Source: an uncultured Gemmatimonadaceae bacterium (lineage in GTDB: Bacteria; Gemmatimonadota; Gemmatimonadetes; Gemmatimonadales; Gemmatimonadaceae). From it: a stretch of DNA of 64,000 nucleotides. The DNA is taken from contig CAWBOC010000010.1 in the NCBI GenBank assembly GCA_963790305.1, forward strand, positions 64,001 through 128,000, in the 5' to 3' direction. Numbering within the stretch: the first letter of the stretch is position 1; the number at the start of each line of letters is the position of its first letter. This document shows, piece after piece, positions 557-64,000 of the stretch. The notes under the pieces were generated by a model. It was not told the origin of the DNA. It saw only the letters and a program-made list of their open reading frames with translations, and ran no database searches. Made by a program: the position numbers and the translations under genes.

Positions 557-1342
557 TTGGTGGCCACACGAGTGAAGCCGTACGCCGGAAGCGCCGCGTC
601 CTACGTGCCGGAGCGTCCCACGCTCGAGAAGGCTCGCGCCGCCTCCAAGGCGTGCAAAGCGTGCTGGCTGTGGACGCTCGGGACGCAAACGGTGTTTGGC
701 GAAGGGCCTCGTCAGGCGGACGTCATGTTCGTGGGCGAGCAGCCGGGCGATCAGGAGGACAAGGCAGGCCGGCCCTTCGTGGGTCCGGCCGGAAAGCTGC
801 TCGACCGTGTGCTCGATGAGGCGGGAATCGATCGCACGACCGTCTACCTGACGAACGCGGTGAAGCACTTCAAGTGGGAACGCTCCGAGCGGAGCACCCG
901 CCGCATCCACAAGAAGCCTAACGACGCCGAGATCCGCGCCTGTCGCCCGTGGCTGGATGCCGAGATCGCGCTGGTGCGGCCGCGCGTCATCGTCACGCTC
1001 GGTGCCACCGCATCGCAGGCACTGCTTGGCAAACAGTTCCGCGTGACGAAAGACCGCGGCAAGCCGATCGCATCGCCACTCGCCGAGGCGATCTTCGCGA
1101 CGGTGCACCCCTCGGCGGTGCTACGCGCTCCCGATGCCGCGGCACGAGCGCTCGCCGAGAAGGCGCTCATCGCCGATCTCACCAAGGTCGCCCGACACCT
1201 TCGGGCGCCGACCCGGCAAACATCGCCACGGGCAGCGCGTGCGACTGCGACACGCACCGAGACGCGCGCGACGAAGACACCGGGTACTCGCACCGGCTCA
1301 CGCGAGCTGTCGATGGCCGCGCGCGGCCGGCGGAGCGGCTAG
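557..1342 (+). CDS. udgX: UdgX-type uracil-DNA binding protein (family 4 UDG)
   Basis: ACKAC Fe-S cysteines, GEQPG motif A, GRPFVGPAG, NAVKHFK, R-loop RRIHKKP, HPSAVLR motif B; basic C-terminal tail. Confidence 0.88.
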   Translation: MVATRVKPYAGSAASYVPERPTLEKARAASKACKACWLWTLGTQTVFGEGPRQADVMFVGEQPGDQEDKAGRPFVGPAGKLLDRVLDEAGIDRTTVYLTNAVKHFKWERSERSTRRIHKKPNDAEIRACRPWLDAEIALVRPRVIVTLGATASQALLGKQFRVTKDRGKPIASPLAEAIFATVHPSAVLRAPDAAARALAEKALIADLTKVARHLRAPTRQTSPRAARATATRTETRATKTPGTRTGSRELSMAARGRRSG

Positions 1343-1455
1343 ATACTCCGCAGCAACCAGTACAGCAGCAGGAAAATGAGGACGGTGGTAAAGCAGCCAC
1401 CGCCAAGCTTCTTCGCGCCCCAGCCGGCGCCGAGCGCGGCGAAGAGTCGATTCAT
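1339..1455 (-). CDS. Small (38 aa) membrane protein
   Basis: MNRLFAALGAGWGAKKLGGGCFTTVLIFLLLYWLLRSI; ATG at 1455; one hydrophobic helix; fills the udgX-alkA gap. Confidence 0.65.
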   Translation of the reverse strand: MNRLFAALGAGWGAKKLGGGCFTTVLIFLLLYWLLRSI

Positions 1456-1516
1456 GTCGTAATTGCCCGGTTCGAGGTTGCGGACGGCATGCGCAGGAAT
1501 GGAGCCAAAGGGTGGC

Positions 1517-2263: not shown

Positions 2264-3407
2264 GTCGGCCACCGATCGCTTCGACCTGTTCGCGATCGCG
2301 GCCCCGGGACTGGAGCCACTCGTCCAGCGTGAGCTGAAAGCCCTGGGCATCGAGGGCCTCCACGTCGACGCGGGCGGCGTCTCCTTCACCGGCGGACGCG
2401 AGGCGATCTACCGCGCCAACTTGTACCTCCGAACGGCGACCCGCGTCATCGCGCGCGTCGCCGAGTTCGGTGTGAGGGGATTCCCCGAGCTCGTACGGCA
2501 CGCGAAGCGGCAACCATGGGAGCGCTACCTCGTCGCCAACCGTCCGATTCAGCTTCGCGTCACCTGCCGAAAGTCACGTCTCTACCACTCGGGTGCGGTC
2601 GCCGAGCGTGTAGCCGACGCGATATCCCAGCGGTTGGGGGTCGAGGGAGTCGAGGTGATCAAGGGTAGCGAGGACGAGGACGCCACGGGTCAGCTCGTCA
2701 TCGTCCGCGTGGCCCACGACCACTGCGTGCTGAGCGTAGACACGTCGGGCGAGCTGCTGCACCGTCGCGGCTATCGCGAGGCGACAGCGAAGGCACCGAT
2801 TCGTGAGACGCTGGCCGCCGCGCTCCTTCTGGCCGCGGAGTGGCGCGGGGACGCGCCGCTGCTCGACCCGTTCTGCGGATCGGGAACGGTCGCGATCGAG
2901 GGCGCCTTGCTCGCGCGTCACATTGCGCCCGGCCTCAACCGTCGCTTCGCCTTCATGGAGTGGCCCGACTTCGACAGCGCACTCTGGCGCCGCACTCACG
3001 ATGAAGCCGCGCGCGCGGTGGTCGCGCGCGCGCCATCACCCATTCAGGCGTCTGATCGAGACGCGGGCGCCATCGAGGCCGCGCGCGCGAACGCGGCACG
3101 CGCCGGCGTCGCCGACGACATCGTCTTTGAGAAGAGGGCGCTTTCGGCGATCGAGCCGCCGGTGGGGCTGGGCTGGGTCTGCACGAACCCTCCCTACGGC
3201 GTGCGCGTGAGCGAACGCGCCGAGCTGCGAAATCTCTACGCGCAATTCGGCAAGGTCATGCACGCGAAATGTCCAGGGTGGACGGTGGCGATGTATTCGG
3301 CCGACGCGCGTCTCGAGAAAGCGGCGAGACTCCCCTTGCGTCCGGTTCTGCGGACGGTGAACGGGGGAATTCCGGTGCGGGTCGTTAGGGGGATTGTCGG
3401 GCAGTAA
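2208..3407 (+). CDS. rlmL: THUMP-domain 23S rRNA m2G methyltransferase (RlmL/YpsC-like)
   Basis: ANLYLRTATRV, DTSGELLHRRGYR, APIRETLAA, DPFCGSGT, NPPYG. Start uncertain. Confidence 0.85.
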   Translation: MPVGTSGGRSTETRTSPTRSATDRFDLFAIAAPGLEPLVQRELKALGIEGLHVDAGGVSFTGGREAIYRANLYLRTATRVIARVAEFGVRGFPELVRHAKRQPWERYLVANRPIQLRVTCRKSRLYHSGAVAERVADAISQRLGVEGVEVIKGSEDEDATGQLVIVRVAHDHCVLSVDTSGELLHRRGYREATAKAPIRETLAAALLLAAEWRGDAPLLDPFCGSGTVAIEGALLARHIAPGLNRRFAFMEWPDFDSALWRRTHDEAARAVVARAPSPIQASDRDAGAIEAARANAARAGVADDIVFEKRALSAIEPPVGLGWVCTNPPYGVRVSERAELRNLYAQFGKVMHAKCPGWTVAMYSADARLEKAARLPLRPVLRTVNGGIPVRVVRGIVGQ

Positions 3408-3424
3408 CACTCGTGGCAACAGAA

Positions 3425-4030
3425 TCAACAGCCCCGCGCGACCCGATTCCACCACCGCGCAATGCGCTCTCCCGCCAAATGAATCAGCACCGCGATCGTG
3501 AAGAATCGCGCGGCGCGGCCGGCGCCTAACGCCAGGGCGAATACCGGGAAGGGAATCCCGAACGCCCCCGCCGAGACGGAGACCAGCTTCGAGGGGAAGG
3601 GCGAGACCGAGCTGATGACGACGAGCATCCAGCCGTGCTTGGCGAAAAGCGTCTTCAACGTCGCCAGCTCGCTCGGCTCGATCCCGAACACACCGAGCAC
3701 CGGAGCGACCACTTCCTGAAAAGCGTAGGCACCGGCGGTGTAAGCGACGATCCCGCCGAGCGTCGATCCGAGAAGCGCCCAGAGTGCCAGGCGATAGACG
3801 CGTCGCGGGTCGGCGAGGCCGAATGGGATGAGCAGCGCATCGGCCGGACCGGGCATGGCCGAGCCCTGCGCGAACGTCCACCCCGCGGTGGCGGGACCAG
3901 ACCATCCCGATTCCGCCCATCCATGCAGGGCGGAGAGAACCCGACAGGCGCGTCCGCGAAGCCCCCCGAGCTGTGTCGCTGGGGGCGGCGGCGGAAGCGT
4001 CACTTGTCGAGGTGCCGAGGTGGTGGCCAC
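3425..4030 (-). CDS. YqaA/VTT (DedA superfamily) membrane protein
   Basis: PGPADALLIP, GSTLGGIVAY, SPFPSKLVSVSAG...GRAARF pattern; last gene of the signalling operon. Confidence 0.75.
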   Translation of the reverse strand: MATTSAPRQVTLPPPPPATQLGGLRGRACRVLSALHGWAESGWSGPATAGWTFAQGSAMPGPADALLIPFGLADPRRVYRLALWALLGSTLGGIVAYTAGAYAFQEVVAPVLGVFGIEPSELATLKTLFAKHGWMLVVISSVSPFPSKLVSVSAGAFGIPFPVFALALGAGRAARFFTIAVLIHLAGERIARWWNRVARGC

Positions 4031-7379: not shown

Positions 7380-13099
<5,720 letters not shown>

Positions 13100-14162: not shown

Positions 14163-16202
14163 CTCCTCCGCCACAAGCATGTCGTGGAGCTCCGCCATTG
14201 TCCTCGGCCTTTGCCCCCGGTCGCGGTGGAGAGCCGCGATCACGGCATCGGATAACCGCCGAGGGACCTCGGGTACCAGCTCGTGCGGGGGCAACGGGGC
14301 CTGCTCCAGCACGCGCGAGATGAGCTGCATGGGATTGTCAGCGGTGTGCGGCGTGCGTCCCGTGAGGCACTCATAGATCACGACTCCCACCGCGTAGATG
14401 TCGGCGCGCGCATCGACGTCCTCCCCAAGCAGCTGCTCCGGCGCCATGTACTCGGGCGTCCCCACCACCACTCCCGTCTGCGTCATCCCCTGGGTGCGCC
14501 CGAGGAGGCGCGCGATGCCAAAGTCCATCACCTTCAGCACCCCGTCAGGGGCGAGCACCATGTTGTGCGGCTTGATGTCACGGTGGACGATCCCCTGCTC
14601 GTGCGCGACCTCGAGCGCACGGCACAGCTGCCGGGCGATCGGCAGCGTCGCATGCACCGGGAGTCGGCCACGTTCGGTGATCAGCGCCTTGACCGACGTG
14701 CCCTCGACGTACTCCATCGTGATGAAGTACATGCCCTCGGTCTCCCCCAGATCGTGCGTGCGGATGACGTTGCGATGGGAGATGCGGCGCGCCAGGCGCA
14801 GCTCGCTCTTGAAGCGCGCCAGCGCCGTCGAATCGGACACGAATTCCCGCCGAAGCGTCTTGACCGCGACCGGCTCGGACAGCTCGAGATCGAGTGCCCG
14901 GTACACGATCCCCATCCCCCCGCTGCCGATCGTCTCAATGATCTCGTATCGACCGGCGAGCCTCTGCCCGGGTTGCAGCGCGTCACCAAGGTGCTGCGTG
15001 GGTGCGACCAGGGGGTCGCGTGCCATGTCCCGCGAACCGGCGTCCGCGCTCAGGAAGTCCACCAGGTCGCGCTTTTCGCGAAGGTCGGCGAGCATCGCGC
15101 GAACCGATTCGGCCAGCCGGCCGATCTCGTCGCCGCCGCGCACGGGGATCTCCGCCGCATAGTCTCCGTCGGCCGCACGGCGCGTGGCTGCTTCGAGGAG
15201 CCCGACGCGACGGGTAATCGCGCGCGCCATGAGATAGGACAAGCCAAACGCCAGGAGCAGCCCGGCGAGCGTCGCCAGCAGAATGGAGCGCTGCAGCGTC
15301 GTGAATGCCGCCATTTCCTCGTCGAGCGATCGCAGCGCGACGAACCCGCCCAGGGCGACTCCCCCCGCGGATCGAAGTGCCGCGCCGCTCGCGACCCAGC
15401 GCGTCTCGCCTAACGTCACGTCCGTGCGAGACACTGCGCCGGTCGTGTCCAGCTCGCCCGCGGTGGGCGCCGAGGGCGAGCCCGCATCGGCTGCCGCCCA
15501 GATCGGCGCGCGCTCGTCGAGGAACCGCGTGAGCGCAGCATCCCGCGCGACCGACGATCCGCTGATGCGCGGCCGTCCGGTACTGTCGAGGGCGAAGAAG
15601 ACCACGCCACTCGATGTCGCGGTGGTGATCTCGCGCGCCACGGAATCGTCGATTGCCTTGGTCGCCATGAGCACGCCGACGACGCGCGCCGACGCGCCCT
15701 CGATGGGCACGGCCACCGCCTGATGCAGCACGGTGTCGGCGATCACCGCCGCCCCCGCCGATCGGCGACCAGCCAACGCGCGCGCGATGAGCGCCGAGCG
15801 GGCCAGTGTGTCCGCCCCGGCGGCGGGATCGTCGCTGCGTGCGAGCCGCACCCCGTGTGCATCGGTGAGATGCACCGTGCTCGCGCCGATCCGCTCGACC
15901 GCCTCGCCTGCCTGATCGAGAAAGGTCGAGCGCTCGGTGACCGGATTCTCGAACAGCGCGCGAAAGTTGGGATTGCGGGCGAACACCTGCGCGCTCGCTT
16001 CCAGACCACGCTCCCGTCCCTCCAGCAGCGCGCGCACGTGCGCTCGCGTCGCTCCGAGTCCACGCGTCACCGCCACGTCCGCGGCGCGCTCAGCCGATCG
16101 TGCCGTGATGGCGAGCGTGAGGGCGGAAACGGCGGCGACGACCACCACACCGCCGAGGAAAATTTTCCAGGTGAGTGAAAGGGCGGGCGTTCGGCGGGCC
16201 AC
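14160..16202 (-). CDS. Membrane Ser/Thr protein kinase: TM, Cache-like periplasmic domain, TM, HAMP, Hanks kinase
   Basis: IGSGGMGIVY, VAVKT, HRDIKPHN, DFGIA, GTPEYMAPE; HAMP (AADGDY...GGDEIGRLA); two TM segments. Confidence 0.9.
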   Translation of the reverse strand: MARRTPALSLTWKIFLGGVVVVAAVSALTLAITARSAERAADVAVTRGLGATRAHVRALLEGRERGLEASAQVFARNPNFRALFENPVTERSTFLDQAGEAVERIGASTVHLTDAHGVRLARSDDPAAGADTLARSALIARALAGRRSAGAAVIADTVLHQAVAVPIEGASARVVGVLMATKAIDDSVAREITTATSSGVVFFALDSTGRPRISGSSVARDAALTRFLDERAPIWAAADAGSPSAPTAGELDTTGAVSRTDVTLGETRWVASGAALRSAGGVALGGFVALRSLDEEMAAFTTLQRSILLATLAGLLLAFGLSYLMARAITRRVGLLEAATRRAADGDYAAEIPVRGGDEIGRLAESVRAMLADLREKRDLVDFLSADAGSRDMARDPLVAPTQHLGDALQPGQRLAGRYEIIETIGSGGMGIVYRALDLELSEPVAVKTLRREFVSDSTALARFKSELRLARRISHRNVIRTHDLGETEGMYFITMEYVEGTSVKALITERGRLPVHATLPIARQLCRALEVAHEQGIVHRDIKPHNMVLAPDGVLKVMDFGIARLLGRTQGMTQTGVVVGTPEYMAPEQLLGEDVDARADIYAVGVVIYECLTGRTPHTADNPMQLISRVLEQAPLPPHELVPEVPRRLSDAVIAALHRDRGQRPRTMAELHDMLVAEE

Positions 16203-16937: not shown

Positions 16938-18266
16938 ATGAGCCACCATCGAACGGCGTCAAGCGCGCGCGTCACGCTCCTCATGCTCGTGCTCCTGACG
17001 CGAGCCGTCGCGGCGCAGGAGCCAGACACCGCACGCACTGCGCAGGACTCACTCGCGGCACGGCTCGAGCGCGCCGAAGAAGCGATCGAGCTCCTCCGCC
17101 AGCAGCTCGCGGCGCAGTCGGAGTCGGAGGTTCGAACGGTGTCTCGCGTGAGCCTGGAGCTCACCGGGCGGGCGCTCGTGAATGCGTTCACCAACAGCGG
17201 TCGCGTCAACAGCGCGGACGTTCCGCAGTTCGTGCTCGCCGATGGCGCCGAGTTTCCTCCGCCCGAGGACTTTCCGCGAGGCTCGGTCGGATTGTCGGCG
17301 CGGCAGACGACCGTCGGCCTCATCGTGTCCGTTGCCGACGTGATGGGTGGCGAGCTCATCGGTGACGTCCACGCGGACTTCTTCTCCGTACAGCAGCCCG
17401 GTGCGGGCGGACGGATCGCCCCCACCATGAGATTGCGAACGTTGAAGGCGGCCGTGCGTTGGCCGAACGCAGAGCTTCTGGTCGGCCAGGAGGTACCTCT
17501 GGTGTTGGGCCTCAACCCGGTGGGCACGGCGAGCATCGGGACACCGACCTTCGCGACCGCCGGCAACCTCTGGCTGTGGCTTCCGCAGATTCGCGCGACC
17601 GTCGAGACGGGTGGCGCACTGCGGCTTGCGCTGCAGGGCGCGGTGCTCGCGCCCAACTCGAGCGAGCCCATCAGCGGAACCAATCGCGACCGCGATGCCG
17701 ATGTTGCCGAGCGCTCGCGCCGACCGTTCGTGCAGGGGCGTGTGCGCGCGCGGTGGGGAAGCGAGGAGCGGCCGGGTGAGGTGGGTGTCGGCGTCCATGG
17801 TGGGTGGTTTGCACGGCCCACCGTCGCGGGCGGTCGCGACGACATGCACGAGAGCTGGGCCGTTGCCGCCGACGTCCTGGCACCACTCGGCCCCCTCACG
17901 CTGCGCGCCGAGCTCTATCGCGGCGCGCTGCTCCGCGGCCTGGGCGGAGGCGGCATCGGCCAGAACTTCGCTCCGGATGGCACGCGCCTGCTCGATCGCG
18001 GCGGCTGGGCGCAGCTCGACCTCCGGGTCGCGACGACGACTTCGTTAGGCGGCGGGTGCGGCGTCGATGACCCGCGCGTGGCACGTCCCGCCTCGGGGTC
18101 TGTGCGCACGCGGAATGTGGCGTGCGAGGCCCACGTCCTGGTGCGCCCCGCGGGCCCCCTGGTGCTGGGACTCGAAGCGAGGCGGATGGAGACCACCTGG
18201 GTCGCGGCGGTGGAGCGGAAGTTCGCCAGCGACCACCTCAATCTTGCCGTGGGGTTCGAGTTCTAA
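16938..18266 (+). CDS. Putative outer-membrane porin with N-terminal coiled coil (DcaP-like)
   Basis: Signal peptide, coiled coil LAARLERAEEAIELLRQQL, amphipathic strands, GNLWLWLPQIR, C-terminal AVGFEF. Confidence 0.7.
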   Translation: MSHHRTASSARVTLLMLVLLTRAVAAQEPDTARTAQDSLAARLERAEEAIELLRQQLAAQSESEVRTVSRVSLELTGRALVNAFTNSGRVNSADVPQFVLADGAEFPPPEDFPRGSVGLSARQTTVGLIVSVADVMGGELIGDVHADFFSVQQPGAGGRIAPTMRLRTLKAAVRWPNAELLVGQEVPLVLGLNPVGTASIGTPTFATAGNLWLWLPQIRATVETGGALRLALQGAVLAPNSSEPISGTNRDRDADVAERSRRPFVQGRVRARWGSEERPGEVGVGVHGGWFARPTVAGGRDDMHESWAVAADVLAPLGPLTLRAELYRGALLRGLGGGGIGQNFAPDGTRLLDRGGWAQLDLRVATTTSLGGGCGVDDPRVARPASGSVRTRNVACEAHVLVRPAGPLVLGLEARRMETTWVAAVERKFASDHLNLAVGFEF

Positions 18267-25828: not shown

Positions 25829-26338
25829 ATGCGCGGTTCCGCCGTTCAGCGCTCGCGTTGACGCTGGCGGCGGCGCTCCTCGCATGTGGCGAAGAGCGGT
25901 CGGCAGACACGACGGCGCAAGCGAGCTCGGCGGCCGGAGATTCAGCGGAAGCGCAGACGCCTCTGGCGGCTGCGCGAGGACGAGCCCAAACAATGGACGC
26001 AGCGTGAAGTCGCGAGGCGACTCACCGATGGCGGGCTCGTGGTCACCGATTCCGGTCGCGCGAGCGTGCGGCATTCCTTCCTCGCCGTGGAAGGCCACCA
26101 CATGAAGGTCAGTGGCTCCGACCTTCACGTCTTCATTTATCCGGATCCCCGTACCCGAAAGGCTGACAGCGACCGAATCGATCCCGAGCGCGTCGCGCCG
26201 CCCGACATGATCATCGACTGGGTGGCGACCCCGCATCTCATCGCGTCGGGTAATCTGCTGGCGATTCACCTCACGCCCAACGAGCGGATGGCGGAGCGCG
26301 TGCGACTCATTCTCGAGGCCTGGCACGCCGAGCCCTAA
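25829..26338 (+). CDS. Hypothetical lipoprotein (frameshifted)
   Basis: LAAALLAC lipobox in one frame; globular domain WTQREVARRL...PHLIASGNLLAI in ORF 25886-26338. Confidence 0.55.
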
Positions 26339-26360
26339 CGGGATGTCTCTCCTGGATGCA

Positions 26361-42871: not shown

Positions 42872-42898
42872 TCGGGGCCTAACCGACTTTTCGAACGT

Positions 42899-45978: not shown

Positions 45979-46863
45979 GTCTTCCGTCTTGCCCAGCGCC
46001 GCCGGCGGGGTCGACCGCGCCACGAAACCACCCACCGCGACAATGGTGAGAACATAGGGGATCATCTGTACGAACTGGCTTGGGATCCCCTGCATGCCCT
46101 GAAGCTGAATCTGCAACGTCTCCGCGGCGGCGAAGAGCAGGCATGCGAGGCCGGCGCGCACCGGCTCCCATCGCCCGAAGATGATCGCCGCCAGCGCAAT
46201 GAACCCGCGTCCAGCGGTCATCGAATCGGTGAACTGGTGCTGGTCGAGCGCCAGATACACGCCGCCGAGCCCCGCGAGAATTCCCGAGAGGGCGACCGCG
46301 AGATAGCGGACCCGTCGGACGGGAACGCCTAACGTCTCGGCCGCGGCGGGATGCTCGCCGACCGCGCGCACGCGCAGGCCGAACGGCGTGTAGTGCACCA
46401 GCCACGCGACGGCGGGAATCGCCATCAGGCCGAGCCACACCAGCGGGTTCCGCAACAGCGCTCCCGTCAAGCTCACCGCATCCCCGGTGATGCCGAAGCC
46501 TGGCACGCGTGGCGAGTTCGACGAGCTGTCGAACGCCATGAGCAGGAAGAACCGCGTGAGGCCGACGGCGAGCAGGTTGATCGCGATGCCCGTGACGATC
46601 TGGTCGGCGCGATACCGGATCGAGGCGACCGCGTGGATCAATCCGAACAGCAACCCCCCGCCGACGCCACACAGCACGCCGATCCACGGGCTGCCGCTGT
46701 AGAAGCTGCCGAGAGTGGCGGCGAACGCGCCCGTCAACATGAATCCCTCGAGCGTGAGGCTCACCACGCCCGCACGCTCGGCCACAACCCCCCCTGAGGC
46801 CGCGAACAGGTAGGGGATCGCGATGCGGATCGTCTGGGCAATGAAGGCGGCGATCTCGCTCAT
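45976..46863 (-). CDS. Nucleoside ABC transporter permease 2
   Basis: AERAGVVSLTLEG, GLRVRAVGEHP, GRGFIALAA, IPYVLT. Confidence 0.92.
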   Translation of the reverse strand: MSEIAAFIAQTIRIAIPYLFAASGGVVAERAGVVSLTLEGFMLTGAFAATLGSFYSGSPWIGVLCGVGGGLLFGLIHAVASIRYRADQIVTGIAINLLAVGLTRFFLLMAFDSSSNSPRVPGFGITGDAVSLTGALLRNPLVWLGLMAIPAVAWLVHYTPFGLRVRAVGEHPAAAETLGVPVRRVRYLAVALSGILAGLGGVYLALDQHQFTDSMTAGRGFIALAAIIFGRWEPVRAGLACLLFAAAETLQIQLQGMQGIPSQFVQMIPYVLTIVAVGGFVARSTPPAALGKTED

Positions 46864-47927
46864 TCGGCGACTCCGCCTCTCGCGCCGCGCACCAGCCGCC
46901 GAACCTCCGGCACCGCCGCGGCCACCGCGAGGATGACCACGCCCTGAAGCACCTCGACCATCTGCTTCGGCACCAGCGCGTGAATCGCCAGCCCACCCTG
47001 CGACAGGGTTGCGAAGAGGAAGGCGGCGATGATGACGCCTAACGGGTGGTTCCGGCCGACCAGGGCGACCGCGATCCCGAGAAAACCGGCTCCGGCGCCG
47101 AATCCTTCCTCGTAGTAGTGCTTGTAGCCGAGGACGTAGTTGATGCCGCCGAGTCCGGCCAACGCCCCGGAGATGACGAACGCCTTGATCCAGACGGTGC
47201 CGACCCGCACGCCTCCATATTCGGCCGCGTCCGGCTGAAGACCGACCGCGCGCAGCTCGTAACCGGCGCGGGTGCGGAAGAGCATCCAGCCCACGACGGC
47301 CGCCGCGACGATCGCGATGAACAGTGAGACGTTGACGGCCGATCCGTGGAACGGCGACACCCAGTCCATCAGCCGCGCCACGGTCCCCGCACGCATATCG
47401 GGCGTGTGCAGCGTTTCCGGAACGTGAAGGTGGGACGCCACGATCCAGTTGAGCAACGCCAGCACGATGAAGTTCAGCATGATCGTGACGATCACTTCGT
47501 GCGCGCCGAAGCGTGCCTTCATCACGCCGGGAATCGCGCCGACGAGCCCGCCGGCCGCGAGGGCCGCCGCAATGCACAGCGGGATCGCCAACACCCCCGG
47601 TGTGCCAGCGGGCAGCACGAGGCCCATGACTGCGGCGGCGAATCCACCCGCCGCGAGCTGCCCTTCGCCGCCAATGTTGAACAGCCCCGCGCGGAGGGCA
47701 ACCGAGACCGCGAGGCCCGTGCAGATGAGCGTCGTTGCCTTGTAGAGCACCTGGCCGAAACCGTACCAGTTTCCCCAGGTGCCGCTGAGCATCAGGCGAA
47801 ACACCGCGCTTGGCGACTGCCCAACGAGGATGATGAGAATGTCCCCGACCACCAGCGCCACGAGCAGTGCCACGAGTGGCGGCAGCAGGGCTTCCTCCAC
47901 GCGCCGGCGCGCGACGGTCGTCGTCAC
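46860..47927 (-). CDS. Nucleoside ABC transporter permease 1
   Basis: GLFNIGGEGQ, HEVIVTIMLN, GYELRAVG, GFLGIAVALVG. Confidence 0.92.
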   Translation of the reverse strand: MTTTVARRRVEEALLPPLVALLVALVVGDILIILVGQSPSAVFRLMLSGTWGNWYGFGQVLYKATTLICTGLAVSVALRAGLFNIGGEGQLAAGGFAAAVMGLVLPAGTPGVLAIPLCIAAALAAGGLVGAIPGVMKARFGAHEVIVTIMLNFIVLALLNWIVASHLHVPETLHTPDMRAGTVARLMDWVSPFHGSAVNVSLFIAIVAAAVVGWMLFRTRAGYELRAVGLQPDAAEYGGVRVGTVWIKAFVISGALAGLGGINYVLGYKHYYEEGFGAGAGFLGIAVALVGRNHPLGVIIAAFLFATLSQGGLAIHALVPKQMVEVLQGVVILAVAAAVPEVRRLVRGARGGVAE

Positions 47928-49513: not shown

Positions 49514-50547
49514 CGCGTGCTCGGCACCTGGATGCGACCGGCGATGATCTCCGCCTTGATCTGTTCGACCCGCGCAATCACGTCCGCCGGAATGAGAGCG
49601 CGGTTGTTGTCGTCGTAGATGTAGCCGACGCCACCCTCCTTCAGCCCGTACGAATAGATGCCCCCCTGAAACGTTCCCTCGCGGGCCCGGCGAATGGCGT
49701 CGAAGGTCACCGCGTCGACTCCCTTGACCATCGACGTCATGATGTGCCCTGGCGCTTCGCTGTACTGATCGGCATCGACGCCGATGGCGTACTTGCCTGT
49801 CTGCCGCGCCGCCTCGAACACACCGAGTCCCGTCGAGCCCGAGGCATGGAAGATCACGTTGACACCCGACTGGTACTGGCTGAGCGCGAGCTCCTTCCCT
49901 TTGCCGGGATTGCGGAAGGCCTCCGGCGTCACCCCGGCGTACTGGGCGATCACCGTGCAATCGGGGCAGACGTGCCTAACGCCGGCACGAAACCCGGCCT
50001 CGAACTTGTGGATGAGCGGGATATCCATGCCGCCCACGAAGCCCACGCGCTTCGATCCGCCGGCGAGCACCGCGATCGCGCCGACGAGGAACGAGCCTTC
50101 CTCCTCGCGGAACTTGAGCGCCGCGAGATTCGATGGCGGCTGAACGACAGTGCCCTGCTCGTTGACGGTCACCGCGTAGTCGACTCCGGCGAACTTGACG
50201 GCCGGATACTCGACGGCGAGATCGGTGAGATCATCGGTGAAAATGAAGCCGACGCCGATGACGAGGTCCATCCCCTGCGCGGCGAGCAATCGCAAGCCCG
50301 CCTCCCGATCGCTCCCCTCACCCGGCTCGATGAAGCGGATGTCGGCGCCCAGAACGGCCTTCGCGGAGTCCGCTCCCTTGTAGGCGCCGTCGTTGAACGA
50401 CTTGTCACCCCGTCCGCCGACGTCGAACACGACCCCCACGACGACGGCGGCCGAGTCCGACTCGGCAACCGCGCCGCGCGGCTGCACGAAGAGCAATGCA
50501 ACGTGGGCGACGAGCAATACCGCGATCAGGATGAGAAGACGGCGCAT
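49510..50547 (-). CDS. BMP/PnrA family ABC substrate-binding protein
   Basis: GGRGDKSFND, FREEEGSFLVG, GFVGG, AIGVDADQ, TSMVK. Confidence 0.93.
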   Translation of the reverse strand: MRRLLILIAVLLVAHVALLFVQPRGAVAESDSAAVVVGVVFDVGGRGDKSFNDGAYKGADSAKAVLGADIRFIEPGEGSDREAGLRLLAAQGMDLVIGVGFIFTDDLTDLAVEYPAVKFAGVDYAVTVNEQGTVVQPPSNLAALKFREEEGSFLVGAIAVLAGGSKRVGFVGGMDIPLIHKFEAGFRAGVRHVCPDCTVIAQYAGVTPEAFRNPGKGKELALSQYQSGVNVIFHASGSTGLGVFEAARQTGKYAIGVDADQYSEAPGHIMTSMVKGVDAVTFDAIRRAREGTFQGGIYSYGLKEGGVGYIYDDNNRALIPADVIARVEQIKAEIIAGRIQVPSTR

Positions 50548-54954: not shown

Positions 54955-57007
54955 ACGGCGAAGACGTCGTAGCAGCCTCCTCCAGCAGCGACCTCAGCCT
55001 ACCCGGATCGGAAGTCGGCTCCGAGCAGAGATAGTGACGGCACACGTACCCCGTGGCGCTTCCGTCTCTGGCGACGCGGTCCTCGAGGAGCGCCACGGTG
55101 GCTCCTTCACCGGGGGCACCGCCGGCCAGGACGAGCGCGGGCAGATACTGCCGAGCCACCTCCGCCGTGAGCGCGCGAAAGTCCTCACGTTGCGGGTCGC
55201 CAACGATCGCGACTTCAGTGGCACCGTTGATCGCCAGATCGGCTGCACCTAACAAGTACCCGAACGCGGCCCCGTGCTGCGCCAGTGGAGCGGCCAGGGT
55301 CTCGAGCATCCACGTCGCTCGGCGCTGCATGTCGGAGTCACGAAAGAGCTCGGCAAGGCGCAAGAGAAGCTCGACTGCGAGAGAGGTCCCGGCGGGGGTC
55401 GCGTTGTCGGTCACCTCGCGAGGGCGGGTGATCAACCGCTCGTGGTCGTGCGCCGTATCGAAGAACATGTTGGCGCTTTCGTCCCAGAAGGACGCGACCA
55501 TCGCATCGCCCAGTAGGCGAGCCCGCGTGAGCCACGAAGCGTCGAACGTGAGCTCGTAGAGCGAGAGAAACGCCAGCGCGACGGCCGCATGGTCCTCGAG
55601 AAAACCAGCGATGCGCGCTCGCCCATCTTTCCACGAGCGAGAAACCTTGTTCTCCTGAACCAGCTCGCGCGCGAGAAACTCGCCGGAGTGTAGTGCCGCG
55701 GCACGCCAGTCTTCGCGGCCACCCACACGAGCACCGTCGGCCAGGGCACGAAGCATGAGGCCGTTCCACGATGCGAGCACTTTTTCATCGCGTCCCGGCC
55801 ACACGCGCGCCGCCCGGCGCTCGTACAGCTTCGCCCGTGCTCGGCGAACCGCGTCCTCCAGGTGGGAGCGCTCAATGCTCTCCCGTGCAGCGACCGCGGA
55901 GGGCTCGTTGGGCACGTGAAGGATGTTGTGTCCCTCGAAGTTTCCACCCGGGCTCACACCCCAATACTTCGAGACGAGTGCGGCGTCTTCCCCCACGACT
56001 TCCTCGAGCTCGGCAGCACTCCATACATAGAACTTGCCTTCCTCACCCTCGCTGTCGGCGTCGAGCGAGGAGTAGAAGCCGCCCTCGGGTGAGCGCATTT
56101 CCCGAAGGGCCCAATCGATGGTGTCCTCCGTCACGCGTCGGGTCTCGTCGTCGCCGGTGGCCTGCCAAAGATGAACGCCGAGGCGCGCCAGGAGCGCGTT
56201 GTCGTACAGCATCTTCTCGAAGTGCGGCACCAGCCACACCGCGTCGACTGCATAACGATGAAAGCCCCCGCCCACCTGATCGTATATCCCGCCGCGTGCC
56301 ATCCGTCGGAACGAGTGAGTGGCGATCTCGAGGGCGTGCGACGTCCCGGTGCGACGCCAATAGCGCAGCGAGAAGTCGAGCGCCATGGCCTGCGGGAACT
56401 TGGGTGCCCCTTCGAATCCCCCCTGGCGTGCGTCGTACCGCTGCGCGATCGAGCGCCAGGCGCGGTCGAGCAGGGCGGGGCTGAGCCCACCGGTACTGCG
56501 GGGAGCGGTCGTGGCAGCAACGTAGATGCTCTTGAGCTGCTCCCCGGAGCGCATGACCTCCTCGCGCCGGGTGCGATACGCATCCGCCACCCCGGCGAGG
56601 ACGCGCCGGAACGACGGCATCCCCATGCGATCGTCGGGCGGGTAGTACGTGCCGCCGAAGAATGGCACGCCCTCGGGCGTGAGAAACATCGTCATCGGCC
56701 AGCCGCCATGTCCGGTCATTGCCTGGACGGCGCTCATGTAAATCCCGTCGAGATCGGGACGCTCTTCGCGGTCGACCTTGATGTTGACGAAGTGATCGTT
56801 CATGACGCGCGCCGTCGCCTCATCCTCGAACGATTCGCGCTCCATTACGTGGCACCAGTGACAGGCCGCGTAGCCAATGCTGAGAAGAATCGGCTTGTCC
56901 TCGCGCTGTGCGCGCTCCAGCGCCTCGCTGCCCCACGGGTACCAGTCGACCGGGTTGTGGGCGTGCTGAAGGAGATAGGGACTCGTCTCGTGAGCTAGTC
57001 GGTTCAT
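54923..57007 (-). CDS. yyaL: YyaL/SPATA20-like thioredoxin-domain (DUF255) protein
   Basis: [46 protein letters not shown]. Confidence 0.93.
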
Positions 57008-57102: not shown

Positions 57103-57107
57103 AGACC

Positions 57108-58670: not shown

Positions 58671-59708
58671 ATGTCCAAGGACTCGCCCCTCTCACGTCGC
58701 GCCCTGCTCAAAGCGGGCGCACTCGGCACAGTGGCAGCCGGCGGTGCCGCAGCCCTCCGCACCCTTCACGGCGTGGCCGAGGCCCAGCAGCGCGTCGACA
58801 CGACCGGCGGGCGCGCGGTCGTGCACGGATCGCACGACGCCATGATCGCGGTCGGCGAGCTGACTCCCGGCCAGTTCGACCCCACCGCCTTCCTCACCCA
58901 CTTCGATTACGGGACCGTCTCCCGCCTGCCTAACGGCCAGACGTTGCGCGAGTATACGATCGTCGCCGAAGATCGGGAGATCGAGGTCGCCCCGGGGGTG
59001 TTCTACCCGGCGTGGACCTACAACGGCCAGGTTCCCGGTCCGACCATTCGGTGCACCGAGGGTGACCGCGTACGCATCCACTTTACGAATAACGGCAAGC
59101 ACATCCACTCGATCCACTTTCACGGAATTCATCCCGCGAACATGGATGGCGCATTCGAGATGATTCCGCCGGGTGAGCGGTACGTCTACGAGTTCGACGC
59201 CGAGCCGTTCGGGCTGCACCTGTATCACTGCCACACCGTCCCGATCAAGCGCCACATCCACAAGGGATTGTACGGCGCATTCATCATCGATCCGAAAGAG
59301 GGCCGCCCAGCGGCGAACGAGCTCGTGATGGTGATGAACGGGTTCGACACGAACTTCGACAACGAGAACGAAGTTTACGCCGTGAACACGGTGGCCTTTC
59401 ACTATCAGAAGCATCCGATTCCGATCAAGCTCGGCGAGCTGACACGGGTGTATCTCATCAACATTACCGAGTTCGATCTGCTCAACTCGTTGCACATTCA
59501 CGGCAACATGTTCCGGTTGTACCGCACCGGCACGAGCCTGACGAACTCCGAATTGACCGACATCGTGACGCTCGGGCAGGGTGAGCGCTCGGTGCTGGAG
59601 TTCACGTACAAGTTCCCGGGCCAGTTCATGTTTCACGCGCATCAGAGCGAGTTCGCCGAGCTCGGGTGGAGCGGGATCTTCCGCGTGGAGGAGCCCGCCC
59701 GTGTCTAG
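58671..59708 (+). CDS. Tat-exported two-domain multicopper oxidase
   Basis: SRRALLK Tat motif; HSIHFHG, YHCH...RHIHKGL, NSLHIHG, FHAHQ. Confidence 0.9.
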   Translation: MSKDSPLSRRALLKAGALGTVAAGGAAALRTLHGVAEAQQRVDTTGGRAVVHGSHDAMIAVGELTPGQFDPTAFLTHFDYGTVSRLPNGQTLREYTIVAEDREIEVAPGVFYPAWTYNGQVPGPTIRCTEGDRVRIHFTNNGKHIHSIHFHGIHPANMDGAFEMIPPGERYVYEFDAEPFGLHLYHCHTVPIKRHIHKGLYGAFIIDPKEGRPAANELVMVMNGFDTNFDNENEVYAVNTVAFHYQKHPIPIKLGELTRVYLINITEFDLLNSLHIHGNMFRLYRTGTSLTNSELTDIVTLGQGERSVLEFTYKFPGQFMFHAHQSEFAELGWSGIFRVEEPARV

Positions 59709-60906
59709 CGCCTCTAGCGCGTCTAGCGCCTCTAGCGCCTCTAGCACTCGTACGAACCGCCTCCTCCTCGGGCTCGGGCCGCTCGCGCTGCTCGCGCTGC
59801 TCATCTTCGCATTCCTCAAGGTCGGGCCGCTGGGCGTCTTCCGCGCCGCGTTTCCCCCGGTCGAGGAGCTGACGATCGAGCGCGTGACGCTGCCGAAGGC
59901 GGGAGAGATGGTCGTGCACGTCGTCAACGGCGGTCCCGAAGCGGTCACGGTGGCCCAGGTGCTCGTCGATGACGCGTCGTGGCTCCATTACATCGATGGT
60001 GAGCGCACCATTAGCCGGCTCGAGCGTCGCGCGATTCGCATCCCGTACCCGTGGGTCGAGGGCGAGCCGCACGTCGTGCGTCTCATCACCAGTACCGGTC
60101 TCACCTTCGATACGACGATCGAGGTCGCGACGACAACCCCGACTGCCAATGCGCGATACCTCACCACGTTTGCGCTCCTTGGCGTGTACGTCGGTGTCAT
60201 CCCGGTGTTTCTGGGACTCCTCTGGTTTCCCTTTCTGCGGACGGCGAGCCGCCGCTGGCTCGACTTCTTCCTGTCACTCACCGTTGGCCTGCTGATCTTT
60301 CTCGGGGTCGACGCGTTCGCTGAGGCGCTCGAGACTTCCGCGCGCGTCGCGGGCGCCTTTCAGGGCCTCGGCGTCGTCTTGTTAGGCGTGCTCGGAACGC
60401 CCCTCGCGCTCGCCGCGATCGGCCACCGCAATCGCGGGACAGGGAAGGGAACTTCCGCGTTTCACGTCTCGCTGTTGATCGCCATCGGCATTGGCTTGCA
60501 CAACCTCGGTGAGGGTCTCGCGATCGGGGCCGCCTACTCCACCGGCGCGATCGCGCTCGGCACCTTCCTGATCATTGGCTTCCTGCTACACAACACGACG
60601 GAAGGGCTCGGGATTCTCGCGCCCATCGCGACCGAGCGGCCGAGTATCGCGCGGCTCGCGATGTTGGGAGCGATCGCGGGAGTGCCGACCGTCCTCGGTG
60701 CCTGGATCGGCGCCTTTACGTACTCGCCGCTGTGGACGACGCTGTTCTTCGCGGTCGGCGCGGGTGCCATCGTGCAGGTCGTGTGGGAGCTGATCAAGCT
60801 GTTCTCCCGTCGTTCCGAAGGCGGCCTCACCGCGCCGTTGAATGTCGCTGGAGTGATGGCGGGGCTGCTGATCATGTACGTCACCGGTCTCCTGGTTCCC
60901 GCATGA
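59701..60906 (+). CDS. ZIP family metal transporter with N-terminal extracytoplasmic domain
   Basis: GIGLHNLGEGLAIG and LHNTTEG; GTG 59701 overlaps the oxidase stop. Confidence 0.88.
   Translation: MSSASSASSASSASSTRTNRLLLGLGPLALLALLIFAFLKVGPLGVFRAAFPPVEELTIERVTLPKAGEMVVHVVNGGPEAVTVAQVLVDDASWLHYIDGERTISRLERRAIRIPYPWVEGEPHVVRLITSTGLTFDTTIEVATTTPTANARYLTTFALLGVYVGVIPVFLGLLWFPFLRTASRRWLDFFLSLTVGLLIFLGVDAFAEALETSARVAGAFQGLGVVLLGVLGTPLALAAIGHRNRGTGKGTSAFHVSLLIAIGIGLHNLGEGLAIGAAYSTGAIALGTFLIIGFLLHNTTEGLGILAPIATERPSIARLAMLGAIAGVPTVLGAWIGAFTYSPLWTTLFFAVGAGAIVQVVWELIKLFSRRSEGGLTAPLNVAGVMAGLLIMYVTGLLVPA
59704..59745 (+). repeat. (TCTAGCGCC)n 9-mer array, single arm, translated as SSASSASSASSASS
   Basis: Same unit as the right arms at 21308-21347 and 45946-45978. 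Confidence 0.85.
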
Positions 60907-61718
60907 GAATCCGTTCGCTCGCGGCCGTGGCGGCATGCGCGCTCGCATCGGTGGTGGACGCGCAGGTGGCAGGGCAGAGCACCGGCCCCCGGCCGCCGGT
61001 CCGCGACAACAGCTTCCTCGTCGAGGAGGCGTACAATCAAGAGGCGCGCGTCGTTCAGCACGTCAGTGTGCTTTCAGTGACGCGCGAGAGTGACGGCTGG
61101 GAGTATGGGTTCACGCAGGAGTGGCCCGCGGGCAGTCAGCGCCACCAGCTGAGCGTCACCGTGCCGATCGTGAATGCGGCGGATGCGACCGGCGTTGGCG
61201 ATGTCGCCCTCAACTACCGGTACCAGCTCGCCTTCGACGACGCGAGCGGCAATGCCGTGGCGCCGCGCGTGAGTCTCGTGCTTCCCACCGGGGACGCCGA
61301 GCAGGGGCGCGGGACGTCGTCGTTAGGTCTTCAGGTGAATCTGCCGGTGAGCTGGGGATGGCACCGTACCTTTGTCACGCACTGGAACGTCGGCGGGGCG
61401 TGGACGCCATCGGCCCGCGCACCGTCGGGGGGAAGAAGTGCCACGCGCGATGTCACGGCGGCCGCCAGCGCGATCTGGCTGGCGAGGCGCGCGGTCAACC
61501 TGATGCTCGAGTTCGCCTGGGCGCGTGAAGAGTTCGCCGTGGGAGCCGATGCACGCGTTGCGGAAGAATCGGCCTGGATCTCGCCGGGCGTGCGTGCCGC
61601 GATCGATTTCCCCAGCGGTCTCCAGATTGTTCCCGGTCTCGCGTTTCCCATCGGCATCGGTCCGAGCGATGGCGAAAAGCGCGTGCTGGTGTACCTCAGC
61701 TTCGAGCACGGCTTCTAG
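60903..61718 (+). CDS. Outer-membrane beta-barrel 'transporter'-like protein
   Basis: Signal peptide; DNSFLVEEAYNQE, GVGDVALNYRYQ, LVLPTGD, terminal YLSFEHGF. Confidence 0.7.
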   Translation: MRIRSLAAVAACALASVVDAQVAGQSTGPRPPVRDNSFLVEEAYNQEARVVQHVSVLSVTRESDGWEYGFTQEWPAGSQRHQLSVTVPIVNAADATGVGDVALNYRYQLAFDDASGNAVAPRVSLVLPTGDAEQGRGTSSLGLQVNLPVSWGWHRTFVTHWNVGGAWTPSARAPSGGRSATRDVTAAASAIWLARRAVNLMLEFAWAREEFAVGADARVAEESAWISPGVRAAIDFPSGLQIVPGLAFPIGIGPSDGEKRVLVYLSFEHGF

Positions 61719-61850
61719 GGGTCAGGAGTCAGGGGTCAGGGATCAGGGGATGTCGGGGGAAGCGGTGCCAGGAGAGCGACGTGTCGTTCCCTCCTGCGAC
61801 CCAACCCCTGCCCCCCCTGATCCCTGACCCCTGACTCCTGACCCCTAGAA
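61713..61850. repeat. Perfect 37-bp inverted repeat made of TCAGGRR 7-mers, including both convergent stop codons
   Basis: 61713-61749 ttctaggggtcaggagtcaggggtcagggatcagggg is the exact reverse complement of 61814-61850. Confidence 0.92.
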
Positions 61851-64000
61851 ACGCCATTCCCGAATCACGAACGCGCCCAGGATGTTCTTGCGCGGCGGGT
61901 CCGCCTGGGCGGCGAGCGTCGGCTCACGGATGAGATACCGAGGTACGTAGCTCATCTCCAGGCGGAGCCCCTTGGGCATCCGGTGCACGAGACGAATACC
62001 AAACGGGTTCTTGTTCGCCGGCTGCGCCTGAATGGCGACGAACGTTCGGCTGCGATTGATGTACTTGCCTGCCTCGATCTCGGTGAGACTGAGCGAGCTG
62101 ATCACGCTATTCGACGACAGCTCCGCCGGGACGTCGGCGGGTGTGAGTCTGAACTCGTCCGTCCCTAACGAGCGCGCCGCGTCCTGCTCGAGCTCGTTCG
62201 TCAGCACGTCCAGCGCCGTGCCGGCCAGCTGACGCGTGGCAATGCTGGCCACCGCGCCCGCCAGCTCGCCACTCCCCGATGACTGTCCCGAAAGCGCCGA
62301 TCCCTGGGCGGTCAGCAGTGACGATGACGACTTGCCGAATGCGAGATAGCTCAGCAGGTCGGACTGCGAGATCGGCGGTTGCGCGGTGCTCTCGAGCGTG
62401 AGCTTCGGATTGCGCAGGGTTCCGCCGATGATCACCTGGATGTCGAGCGCCCCGGACCCCACGAGCGAGACCTCGTGGATGGCGGTGATCTGCAACATCG
62501 GGTTGATCTCGGGATCGCCAATGAAGGTCGCCGAGCCGCGGTTGATGACGAAGCGCCGGCCCATGAACTCGTACGTCCCCTGGTCGGCGTTCACCACCCC
62601 CTCGAGCGTGAGGGCCTGCTTGCTGCGGTCGACGTGAATCGTGAGTGCGCCATACCGCTCGGGCGTGTACACCTCGACGTTCGCCTCGGGCGATCGCACC
62701 CAGGTGTCGCGCGACACGTTGAGCGTGACATCCACGCGCAGGTTGTCCATCAGCGGTGACTGCCCCGGCAAGACCTCGCGCTCGGCGATGATCGAGGTAT
62801 CCACGACCGCGAAGACCGCGGGGTCATCGGCGTTGATGACATCCTTTCCGTCGGACTTCGGGATGTAGATGACGCCGTTGCGGATGTTCGCCGTCCCGGT
62901 GACGTACACGGCGTCGAAGGGTCCCTCGATGCCGATGTTCGCGTCCGCGTTGATGCGTCCCTGCTCGTTGTCGAGCACGCGTGCGTTCGTCGCCACCAGG
63001 CGCAGATCGAACGAGGGGCGCGTGAGCTCCGCGACGCCAATGCCGCCGCGGATGCGGATGGGACCGTTCGCGCGCCCAACGAGCGAATCGATGACAATGG
63101 TGTCGCCGTTGAGCCGCACCAGCCCATTGATGTCGCGCATCGTGACGCCGAGCGGCACGATCCGGAACGACGCGAAGTCGAGGGCCATCAGCCCCGTCAG
63201 CTCCGGCGAGCGTGGCGTGCCTCGCGCGGTGAGCACCCCCACCAGCTCCCCGCGCACCTCGCTGATCGCGTCGGTGAACTTGGGCAGCACATCCAGCGGA
63301 AGCGAATCGGCGCGGAGCTCGAATTCCAGCGGCCGGTCGAGCAGTCGCGGGCCGGTGACTCCGGCCAGCGCGAGGTTCACCGGGATGACGCCCTCGGCGA
63401 CCGCCACCGGCGTGCCGTTGCCCCGCAGCATTTCGGCCTGCGCGTCGAGCACTTCGTCGGAGTAGGTCAATCGCGCACGGACGTCCGGCACCACCGTGCC
63501 CCGATACGATACGCCCGTCACGCCTAACGCCGCACGCACTCGCGGGTCGCGCGTCGTTCCCTCCACCCGCGCCACGACCTGGAGCACGCCGGTCGCCTCG
63601 ATGTCCGACTGCAACAGCTCGACGACATGCGACACCTCGAGCCCGGAGATCTCGATGTCGAGACGGGCCGTCCCCTCGGTGGGCACGAGTCCATTCACGT
63701 AGATGCGGCCGCGCGTTCCCTGGCGAAGATCGAGCGCGAGAATCTCGACACCACGGCCTCCCCAGCGGACGGTGCTCGGACGCGCCGACACCCAGGTCGT
63801 CGTGTCGAATCGGAGGTGCAGTTGATCGAGGTGCACTTCGCGGTGATCGGTGTGCAGCGCGAAGCTGCCGCTCAATCGATAGTCATGCGACTCATGCTGA
63901 TGAATGGCGACGTCGATCTTGCCGGTCGTCCCGCGTGCCGTGATACGGGCTTCGACGCTGTCCAGCGCAAACCCCGCTGCCTGCACCGTGTCGAGCGAGA
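61845..64000 (-). CDS. tamB: Translocation and assembly module TamB (DUF490), C-terminal part
   Basis: Beta-taco repeats, GTYEFMGRRF, GDPEINP.L.I.A, IGGTLRNPKLTLES.PP.SQSDLLSYL.FG; starts beyond the window. Confidence 0.85.
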   Translation of the reverse strand, partial: SLDTVQAAGFALDSVEARITARGTTGKIDVAIHQHESHDYRLSGSFALHTDHREVHLDQLHLRFDTTTWVSARPSTVRWGGRGVEILALDLRQGTRGRIYVNGLVPTEGTARLDIEISGLEVSHVVELLQSDIEATGVLQVVARVEGTTRDPRVRAALGVTGVSYRGTVVPDVRARLTYSDEVLDAQAEMLRGNGTPVAVAEGVIPVNLALAGVTGPRLLDRPLEFELRADSLPLDVLPKFTDAISEVRGELVGVLTARGTPRSPELTGLMALDFASFRIVPLGVTMRDINGLVRLNGDTIVIDSLVGRANGPIRIRGGIGVAELTRPSFDLRLVATNARVLDNEQGRINADANIGIEGPFDAVYVTGTANIRNGVIYIPKSDGKDVINADDPAVFAVVDTSIIAEREVLPGQSPLMDNLRVDVTLNVSRDTWVRSPEANVEVYTPERYGALTIHVDRSKQALTLEGVVNADQGTYEFMGRRFVINRGSATFIGDPEINPMLQITAIHEVSLVGSGALDIQVIIGGTLRNPKLTLESTAQPPISQSDLLSYLAFGKSSSSLLTAQGSALSGQSSGSGELAGAVASIATRQLAGTALDVLTNELEQDAARSLGTDEFRLTPADVPAELSSNSVISSLSLTEIEAGKYINRSRTFVAIQAQPANKNPFGIRLVHRMPKGLRLEMSYVPRYLIREPTLAAQADPPRKNILGAFVIREWRF

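Follow-up and report, generated by a model that had tools for sequence, protein, structure and literature searches.

What keeps an eight-letter word at about 20 times its chance frequency inside genes that otherwise have nothing to do with one another? The question is raised by a stretch of 64,000 nucleotides (nt) from an uncultured Gemmatimonadaceae bacterium (positions 64001–128000 of contig C10 in the source genome, G000; hereafter the window), in which the octamer GCCTAACG occurs 15 times. The source genome comprises 4.31 million base pairs (Mb) on 13 contigs, with 66% guanine plus cytosine (GC). Here we follow the word through this genome, through its relatives and into a second phylum. 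We propose, at a probability of roughly 40%, that GCCTAACG is an uptake-sequence-like word accumulating by biased transfer of DNA, with uptake as the step at which the bias most likely arises.

Results

All 15 exact copies that an initial annotation had listed for the window are present where it placed them (11 on the forward and 4 on the reverse strand), as are its nine near-copies with the core CCTAAC, namely three of GCCTAACA, three of CCCTAACG and one each of ACCTAACG, ACCTAACA and GCCTAACC. Dinucleotide shuffling of the window gives an expectation of 0.72 octamers (standard deviation 0.84, maximum 3), and 15 were reached in none of 100 shuffles. CCTAAC cores number 24 against 5.28 expected, being the 15 octamers plus the nine near-copies, and they take up 24 of the 40 CTAA/TTAG words of the window, in line with the claim that more than half of these words lie in this context. 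The copies were further described as nearly all genic, on both strands and in several frames; indeed, all 15 octamers fall in genes, ordinary and unrelated ones (UDG, Ser/Thr kinase, NDH-2, ABC permeases, TamB and others; Table 1), and by the gene calls made here nine are read as xCG-TTA-GGC, three as xGC-CTA-ACG, two as CCT-AAC and one as GTT-AGG.

Across the source genome, GCCTAACG occurs 855 times (436 forward, 419 reverse), on all contigs and at 0.13–0.30 copies per kilobase (kb), and no other 8-mer is as strongly over-represented (z 122; about 20-fold over chance). Markov models of orders 0, 1, 2 and 3 predict 166, 68, 40 and 44 copies, respectively; models of orders 5–6 predict 750–878 and are uninformative, because the 6- and 7-letter sub-words exist nearly only inside GCCTAACG (CCTAAC occurs 1547 times, 1105 of these as GCCTAAC). 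The high-order Markov correction that the initial annotation had named as a refuting check is therefore without force here. A simple codon-usage finder yielded 3827 genes (85% coding), within each of which we permuted synonymous codons. In this, the relevant test, the excess persists, with 692 copies in genes against 42.6 ± 4.8 over 30 shuffles (maximum 52). Leucine in the context NCG-Leu-GGC is written TTA in 334 of 1252 cases (26.7%), compared with 0.9% of all leucine codons. These results support selection or drive on the DNA rather than on the protein, as the initial annotation had claimed.

Apart from slightly favouring C or T over G at position −1, the flanks of the word are uninformative; GCCTAACG is therefore a free-standing 8-mer and no core of a longer repeat, and a hidden repeat or mobile element behind it is rejected on the same ground. 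Tolerance inside the word is graded at positions 1, 3 and 8. The first base follows G > A > C (ACCTAACG, 194 copies, 9.6-fold), the third C > A (GCATAACG, 253 copies, 6.9-fold) and the last G > A (GCCTAACA, 115 copies, 9.3-fold), while the remaining one-off variants reach about twofold at most, a gradation that resembles a reader with a weight matrix. GCATAACG is itself dispersed in genes beyond what codon use predicts, with 191 copies against 65 after codon shuffling, and ATA, 2.5% of isoleucine codons overall, rises to 15% in the context NGC-Ile-ACG.

Called genes contain 690 of the 855 copies; the other 165 fall between genes or at a gene edge. All four stop-free frames are used (xCG-TTA-GGC 334, xxG-CCT-AAC-G 152, xGC-CTA-ACG 145 and xxC-GTT-AGG-C 59), and in two of them the peptides that the word can encode slightly exceed their reversed controls ([SPTA]LG, 3303 versus 2905; PN[VADEG], 902 versus 774). 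Between genes, density is highest where constraint is least, at 0.47 copies per kb in convergent spacers, 0.24 in tandem and 0.18 in divergent ones. Recently acquired DNA appears to be poor in the word: the fifth of genes with the lowest GC at third codon positions, likely newer DNA, holds 0.126 copies per kb against 0.22–0.25 in the top two fifths, and integron cassette arrays hold, in small numbers, one copy in 16.5 kb in the source genome and two in 9.5 kb in the Verrucomicrobiota genome G178, where the adjoining 10 kb hold eight.

Turnover within the genus was followed by aligning window positions 40001–60000 to eight congeneric genomes (78–86% identical). Of 41 comparisons, 19 retain the 8-mer and 29 the 6-letter core, the respective backgrounds being 22% and 31% (p ~0.03, from six sites in genomes that are kin). 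Other lineages of the genus hold private copies at places where the source genome has no word; with such copies standing beside shared sites, gain and loss are therefore both continuing. The alternative states in orthologues are often two bases apart, for example CTC versus TTA. The conservation beyond background that a DNA-level signal had been expected to show is thus there in part, accompanied by gain and loss.

We call a genome enriched when its word count lies above that of the reversed control. Among 41 relatives 16 are enriched, patchily within the order: all nine genomes of the genus, G012, G016, G021 and G022 of the same family, and G036, G038 and G040 of a second family. The remaining 25 hold 6–194 copies each. 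The densest genome, G016, has 6360 copies, and a 276-kb sample of it holds 334 against 7 expected (1.2 per kb), with the same tolerance profile. A phylum-wide sample of 151 genomes contains six above control, the source genome included, all of them within the order and one in a third family; none of 45 genomes from outside the order is enriched in this sample, where the largest count is 70. Genome records labelled Gemmatimonadaceae carry the same word. Among the genomes in the phylum tallies are the unpublished G015, G084 and G123, on which alone no conclusion rests. This distribution supports the earlier view of a lineage-specific signal; what that view missed is that the word is common to a second phylum.

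We scanned one genome per species for pairs of copies lying 170–200 nt apart; this returned at least 123 stretches, and further copies were counted in 79 loci from 64 source genomes among the matches listed. Within these, at least 0.2 further copies per kb occur in 21 of 23 genomes labelled Verrucomicrobiota and in 16 of 17 with Gemmatimonad- labels, and no further copy in 14 of 24 others. Soil Verrucomicrobiota, in which the form TCGTTAGGC was tested, use a dialect of their own, the 9-mer GCCTAACGA, with A following in 90% of copies. Whole-genome counts in four Verrucomicrobiota genomes are 2136–3510 against reversed controls of 247–357, and an unselected 400 kb of Verrucomicrobiota DNA contains the word 185 times against 2.3 expected (strands 114+/109−). 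Among 61 relatives of G178 (the unpublished G185 and G207 included), the 37 listed first, as nearest, hold 1155–5186 copies each and the other 24 hold 4–78. An island of Verrucomicrobiota origin in the source genome is rejected, as its dense 8-kb segments are native in GC and lack the 9-mer dialect.

Other matches of the scan were not the dispersed word. They comprise tandem repeats containing GCCTAACG but unrelated to it (L147, 5001–5425; L118, 5001–5260; L095, 4953–5200; periods of 52, 50 and ~24 nt, under Myxococcales, Chloroflexia and Aliinostoc labels), an array in one orientation (L127) and a paired repeat. In the Acidobacteriota genome G182 (contig C4; L077, 5001–9010, and also ~1.248–1.383 Mb), many pairs of GCCTAACG lie exactly 25 nt apart, in one-orientation blocks over ~130 kb of a genome that is overall not enriched (135 copies versus a control of 475); this paired repeat may be either a cassette array of very large size or a different family of repeats.

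The word has no polarity. Strands are balanced in the source genome both where GC skew is positive (161+/181−) and where it is negative (264+/234−), on both sides of an origin-like skew switch on contig C5, and over 1.2 Mb of the G178 chromosome (322+/314−). No strand bias appeared in any replichore examined, so that a polarity like that of Chi or of FtsK-orienting polar sequences (KOPS) is not supported. Regular spacing, a further property that the initial annotation had proposed to check, is absent from the coefficient of variation (CV) of gaps in the source genome, 1.0 overall, yet close pairs are scarcer than under a Poisson model, with 4 below 200 bp against 34 expected, 34 below 500 bp against 82 and 108 below 1 kb against 155; a single pair is closer than 100 bp, and 55 genes contain two or more copies against 72 expected. 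The 276-kb sample of G016, with nine pairs below 100 bp against 37 expected and a CV of 0.87, is spaced more evenly than chance would give.

The longest word-free stretch of the source genome spans 54 kb (C6:288265–342699). Since DNA orthologous to a 20-kb piece of it holds 20 copies in 167 kb (0.12 per kb) in eight genomes of the genus, a fixed exclusion zone at a terminus is rejected, and the gap is therefore a lineage-specific loss. Elsewhere on C6, a thin zone at ~140000–260000 holds 8 copies in 120 kb against ~24 expected, about threefold sparser, and GC skew and gene orientation flip near 180 kb in a terminus-like manner.

A reader of the word was sought among the proteins. ComEC is encoded by 41 of 41 relatives, enriched or not, and is uninformative. 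The 13 pilins of the source genome, compared with 30 of 66 pilin loci of five genomes, show no similarity between phyla past the N-terminal helix and no pattern that follows enrichment. One of the 13 has its type IV pilin-like N terminus in the window (26705–26776, minus strand; TIGR02532, E 1.9e-9), with counterparts 52–62% identical in Gemmatimonadales relatives, enriched or not. We also searched the source proteome (3827 genes) by BLAST against 1.2 Mb (30%) of G178. No shared reader emerged from this 30%: among the 29 best matches (at least 58% identity for the initial 400 kb and 55% for the 800 kb that follow), 28 of 28 annotated ones are housekeeping or common metabolic proteins, including CarB, GcvP, DnaK, GroES, RpoC, UvrB, a Pst transporter, ABC ATPases, UDG, ferritin and a sigma-54 regulator pair. 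The uvrB gene of the source genome (C13:131234–133281; L388, 9234–11281) occupies two overlapping frames, a ResIII-type N-terminal one of 157 amino acids followed by one of 526 amino acids with UvrB domains; this split is a frameshift or an assembly error. Full-text literature searches for a function of GCCTAACG, its complement or the 9-mer matched only primers and the like, in keeping with the earlier statement that none had been described, and no literature was found joining a DNA uptake sequence with Gemmatimon- names.

The word is also an integron box, a second point that had been missed. G027 and G025, two relatives without enrichment, have few copies, clustered in one orientation every 500–650 bp, and these clusters are integron cassette arrays. 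The attC sites of these two genomes, and of G026 and G032, start with GCCTAACG, that is, the R'' box plus one base, and have GTTAGGC at the other end; those of G027 and G025 end in TGTTAGGC ~90–135 nt later, with inner inverted repeats between. Verrucomicrobiota arrays have the attC ends ACCTAACG/GTTAGGT. The consensus of attC R''/R' boxes is RYYYAAC/GTTRRRY. About 8 of ~33,000 strand-collapsed 8-mers would contain GTTAGGC, a comparison made after the fact. The source genome has a chromosomal integron of its own, with an integrase (C9:694911–695922; TIGR02249, E 1e-134) and, downstream of it on the same strand, at least 26 cassettes to ~C9:724 kb (L009, 1911–20000, equals C9:694911–713000). 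Its attC sites, ~135 nt long, end in GCAGAAC/GCATAAC ... GTTCTGC/GTTATGC, and GCATAACG is one of their two R'' boxes; the array mostly uses GCAGAAC.

The dispersed copies are nevertheless no attC sites. A partner R' box (GTTAGRC) within 40–140 nt was found at one GCCTAAC site of the source genome (on a GCCTAACC) and at 0 of 855 octamers, and the flanks of dispersed copies contain no L boxes. An integrase IntI above the TIGR02249 cut-off is encoded by 12 of the 16 enriched relatives and by 16 of the 25 others; it is absent from the enriched G012 and G020, the densest genome G016 has three fragments only, and it is present in all four enriched Verrucomicrobiota genomes checked. With no partner box and no co-distribution of the integrase, the dispersed word is therefore not attC and the integrase not its evident reader.

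Apart from the octamer, some over-represented words of the source genome are mostly intergenic, namely AATGCGGAA (301 of 384 copies), GCGCTAGAGGC (158 of 173) and CCTGACTCC (262 of 301), and the window contains at 59704–59745 a ~42-nt element with 90–98% identical copies at many places in G000, G004, G005 and G008 of the genus. These words and the element look like repetitive extragenic palindromic (REP)-like or regulatory repeats.

Table 1. Copies and near-copies of the word in the window, with gene context and fate in orthologues of the genus.
Word	Position	Strand	Context	Orthologues
GCCTAACG	916..923	+	sense, UDG-family gene 572-1342 +, AAG CCT AAC GAC	
GCCTAACG	3524..3531	+	antisense, VTT/DedA-like gene, GCG TTA GGC	
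GCCTAACG	15408..15415	+	antisense, Ser/Thr kinase gene 14160-16202 -, ACG TTA GGC	
GCCTAACG	18043..18050	-	antisense, gene 16938-18266 +, TCG TTA GGC	
GCCTAACG	20718..20725	+	sense, gene 20429-21265 +, AGC CTA ACG	
GCCTAACG	30449..30456	+	sense, E1 dehydrogenase gene, CGC CTA ACG	
GCCTAACG	31748..31755	-	antisense, PIG-L-domain gene, GCG TTA GGC	
GCCTAACG	38506..38513	-	sense, gene 38002-40035 -, GGC CTA ACG	
GCCTAACG	43707..43714	-	antisense, NDH-2-like gene, TCG TTA GGC	lineage-specific, kept in 0/6
GCCTAACG	44900..44907	+	antisense, MFS transporter gene, GCG TTA GGC	CCTAAC kept in 8/8, first base G/A
GCCTAACG	46327..46334	+	antisense, ABC permease gene, ACG TTA GGC	GCCGAGCG (Leu CTC) in some
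GCCTAACG	47037..47044	+	antisense, ABC permease gene, CCG TTA GGC	
GCCTAACG	49974..49981	+	antisense, Bmp/PnrA-like binding-protein gene, GGC GTT AGG CAC	kept in 6/8
GCCTAACG	58928..58935	+	sense, multicopper oxidase gene, CTG CCT AAC GGC	
GCCTAACG	63522..63529	+	antisense, TamB-like gene, GCG TTA GGC	
near-copy CCCTAACG	3383..3390	-	GTT AGG frame	
near-copy GCCTAACA	8851..8858	+		
near-copy CCCTAACG	26333..26340	+	intergenic / gene edge	
near-copy GCCTAACA	38875..38882	+	TTA frame	
near-copy GCCTAACC	42877..42884	+	intergenic / gene edge	
near-copy ACCTAACA	55247..55254	+	TTA frame	
near-copy GCCTAACA	60380..60387	-	TTA frame	
near-copy ACCTAACG	61321..61328	-	TTA frame	
near-copy CCCTAACG	62163..62170	+	TTA frame	

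Discussion

We favour biased DNA transfer as the origin of the excess. Some sequence-specific step by which DNA moves between cells would favour fragments carrying GCCTAACG. Copies born by point mutation would then reach relatives, by transmission and recombination, more often than the competing sequences do, and would accumulate at every place where the encoded protein allows it, with rare codons as the price. What maintains the word would be transmission bias rather than a function at each site. The only precedent for such a step known to us is uptake during natural transformation; uptake would be the most likely biased step.

The comparison with known systems bears on this choice. Like the uptake signal sequences (USS) of Pasteurellaceae and the DNA uptake sequences (DUS) of Neisseriaceae, GCCTAACG is a short asymmetric word in 20- to 80-fold excess, at 0.2–1.4 copies per kb, equal on both strands, mostly genic and frame-biased, with graded variants and lineage dialects (8-mer versus 9-mer), and rather evenly spaced; on small numbers it also appears to be poor in new DNA. 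For USS and DUS, a density of about 1 per kb is given in PMC7811141, which also treats even spacing as the expected result of uptake drive, and their occurrence on both strands and in several frames, with strong frame bias, in PMC2817400. The likeness lies in genome patterns, from which we infer biased uptake. Of the analogies offered in the initial annotation, that with uptake sequences remains the closest, whereas those with Chi/KOPS, with highly iterated palindrome 1 (HIP1) and with methylation coupled to Vsr-type repair found no support; the word matches uptake sequences in nearly every genomic respect and fails the Chi/KOPS, HIP1, attC and Vsr tests.

On the other hand, several observations weigh against biased uptake. 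Unlike USS and DUS, the word has no ComP-type receptor that we could find, forms no inverted pairs in terminators, and is at once common to two phyla and patchy within an order. In the search for a ComP receptor, ComP_DUS (PF16732) gave no match over the Pfam cut-off in G000, G016, G178, G180 and G010 (best score 23.5 versus 27.3 bits), prepilin-type genes number 13 in the source genome and 13–14 in each of five other genomes, enriched or not, and no gene examined tracks enrichment, whether integrase, ComEC, Vsr, ComP-type or pilin. To our knowledge, competence has not been reported for these lineages, a subject for which no search was made. The Verrucomicrobiota sample is free of short-range repulsion (CV 1.2; 18 pairs below 200 bp versus 23 expected), the 54-kb word-free stretch consists of core housekeeping genes and not of foreign DNA, the peptide excess is missing in two of the four frames, the conservation test in related genomes covers six sites, and a phage-like contig (L258, 1–7780; virion structural proteins, endolysin) has the word at host-like density, its 7.8 kb carrying 12 copies distributed over both strands. 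Nor would one expect a private tag for self-recognition to recur letter for letter in a second phylum; with a clade of Verrucomicrobiota full of this word, the specificity would have to be portable between phyla or tuned to a feature they share.

Four other explanations compete with biased transfer. That GCCTAACG is a cis-acting binding site for an abundant chromosomal protein, nucleoid-structuring, condensin-loading or similar, under weak selection at each copy, is unlikely but deserves a place at the head of these. Its neutral orientation, the even spacing in two Gemmatimonadota genomes, the conservation above background and the thin zone at the terminus-like switch on C6 all agree with such a role. 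However, enriched genomes differ ~30-fold in the density of the word, and enrichment is patchy inside a single order, which would be odd for core architecture; the orthologues of the word-free stretch leave no excluded zone, and thousands of weakly selected coding sites would be hard to keep without drive.

Slightly less likely again is a link to integrons, in which the word would be read by the integrase or by a factor that recognizes attC ends, for example as a transfer specificity for arrays or as dispersed attG-like sites. Letter for letter, the octamer is identical with the R'' end of attC in related genomes, the second dispersed word GCATAACG is likewise an R'' box of the source genome, an R box conserved across phyla would explain a word common to two of them, and IntI is found in every enriched Verrucomicrobiota genome checked. 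According to PMC12614218, genomic attG sites can serve for the integration of cassettes, and cassette recombination is fed by transformation. Against this stand the lack of association between IntI and enrichment, the main R'' box GCAGAAC of the source genome, which is unenriched when dispersed (1.16-fold), and the harm to be expected of efficient integration sites inside genes. Unlike attC, the dispersed copies lack partner boxes, L boxes and a hairpin and sit in frame inside ordinary genes.

We regard as decidedly improbable a mark of self-DNA that tempers a nuclease or defence system, akin to Chi without its polarity. Like Chi, KOPS and architecture-imparting sequences (AIMS), the word is an octamer; its clade specificity and its density in the source genome, about one copy per 5 kb as for Chi in Escherichia coli, would suit such a mark, as would the phage-like contig of host-like density. 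Unlike GCCTAACG, however, Chi, KOPS and AIMS are co-oriented with replication, and no replichore examined gives the word polarity. Among viral loci, of which 80 from 117 stretches were examined, 54 have a chance pair only and one looks dispersed and dense; with the viral scan returning mostly chance pairs, mimicry by phages is likewise dismissed.

Sequence-specific biased repair or gene conversion, with or without methylation, would be a drive that needs no transfer between cells and would enrich the word in any frame and orientation, as has been discussed for HIP1, but it is very improbable here, since canonical Vsr (PF03852) occurs in 3 of 41 relatives (G009, G014 and G034), none of them enriched, repair of single mismatches would draw on one-off neighbours whose combined expectation is far below 855, and changes between orthologues often need two substitutions (CTC to TTA). 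The word is like HIP1 of cyanobacteria in being a hyper-abundant, clade-specific octamer in genes; HIP1 is a palindrome tied to GATC-type methylation, unlike GCCTAACG, which is asymmetric and not its own reverse complement.

Returning to biased transfer, uptake-type genome words have so far been established only in Pasteurellaceae and Neisseriaceae, and the present one, if the reading is true, would for the first time point to a sequence bias in the exchange of DNA among soil bacteria. A single word dominates a Verrucomicrobiota clade and scattered Gemmatimonadota genera, in two major uncultured soil groups. It is a long shot that both phyla carry a transfer specificity, probably for uptake, aimed at the conserved end of integron cassette sites, which moved between phyla or arose twice on one universal target and, as a side effect, drove the word thousands of times into the cells' own genes; if so, these cells would import cassette arrays preferentially. 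Through its identity with attC ends, the word ties natural transformation to the spread of gene cassettes in a way that can be tested, and the pattern across more than 250 genomes, patchy in one phylum and clade-wide in the other, amounts to a rare natural experiment in which gene association could reveal the reader.

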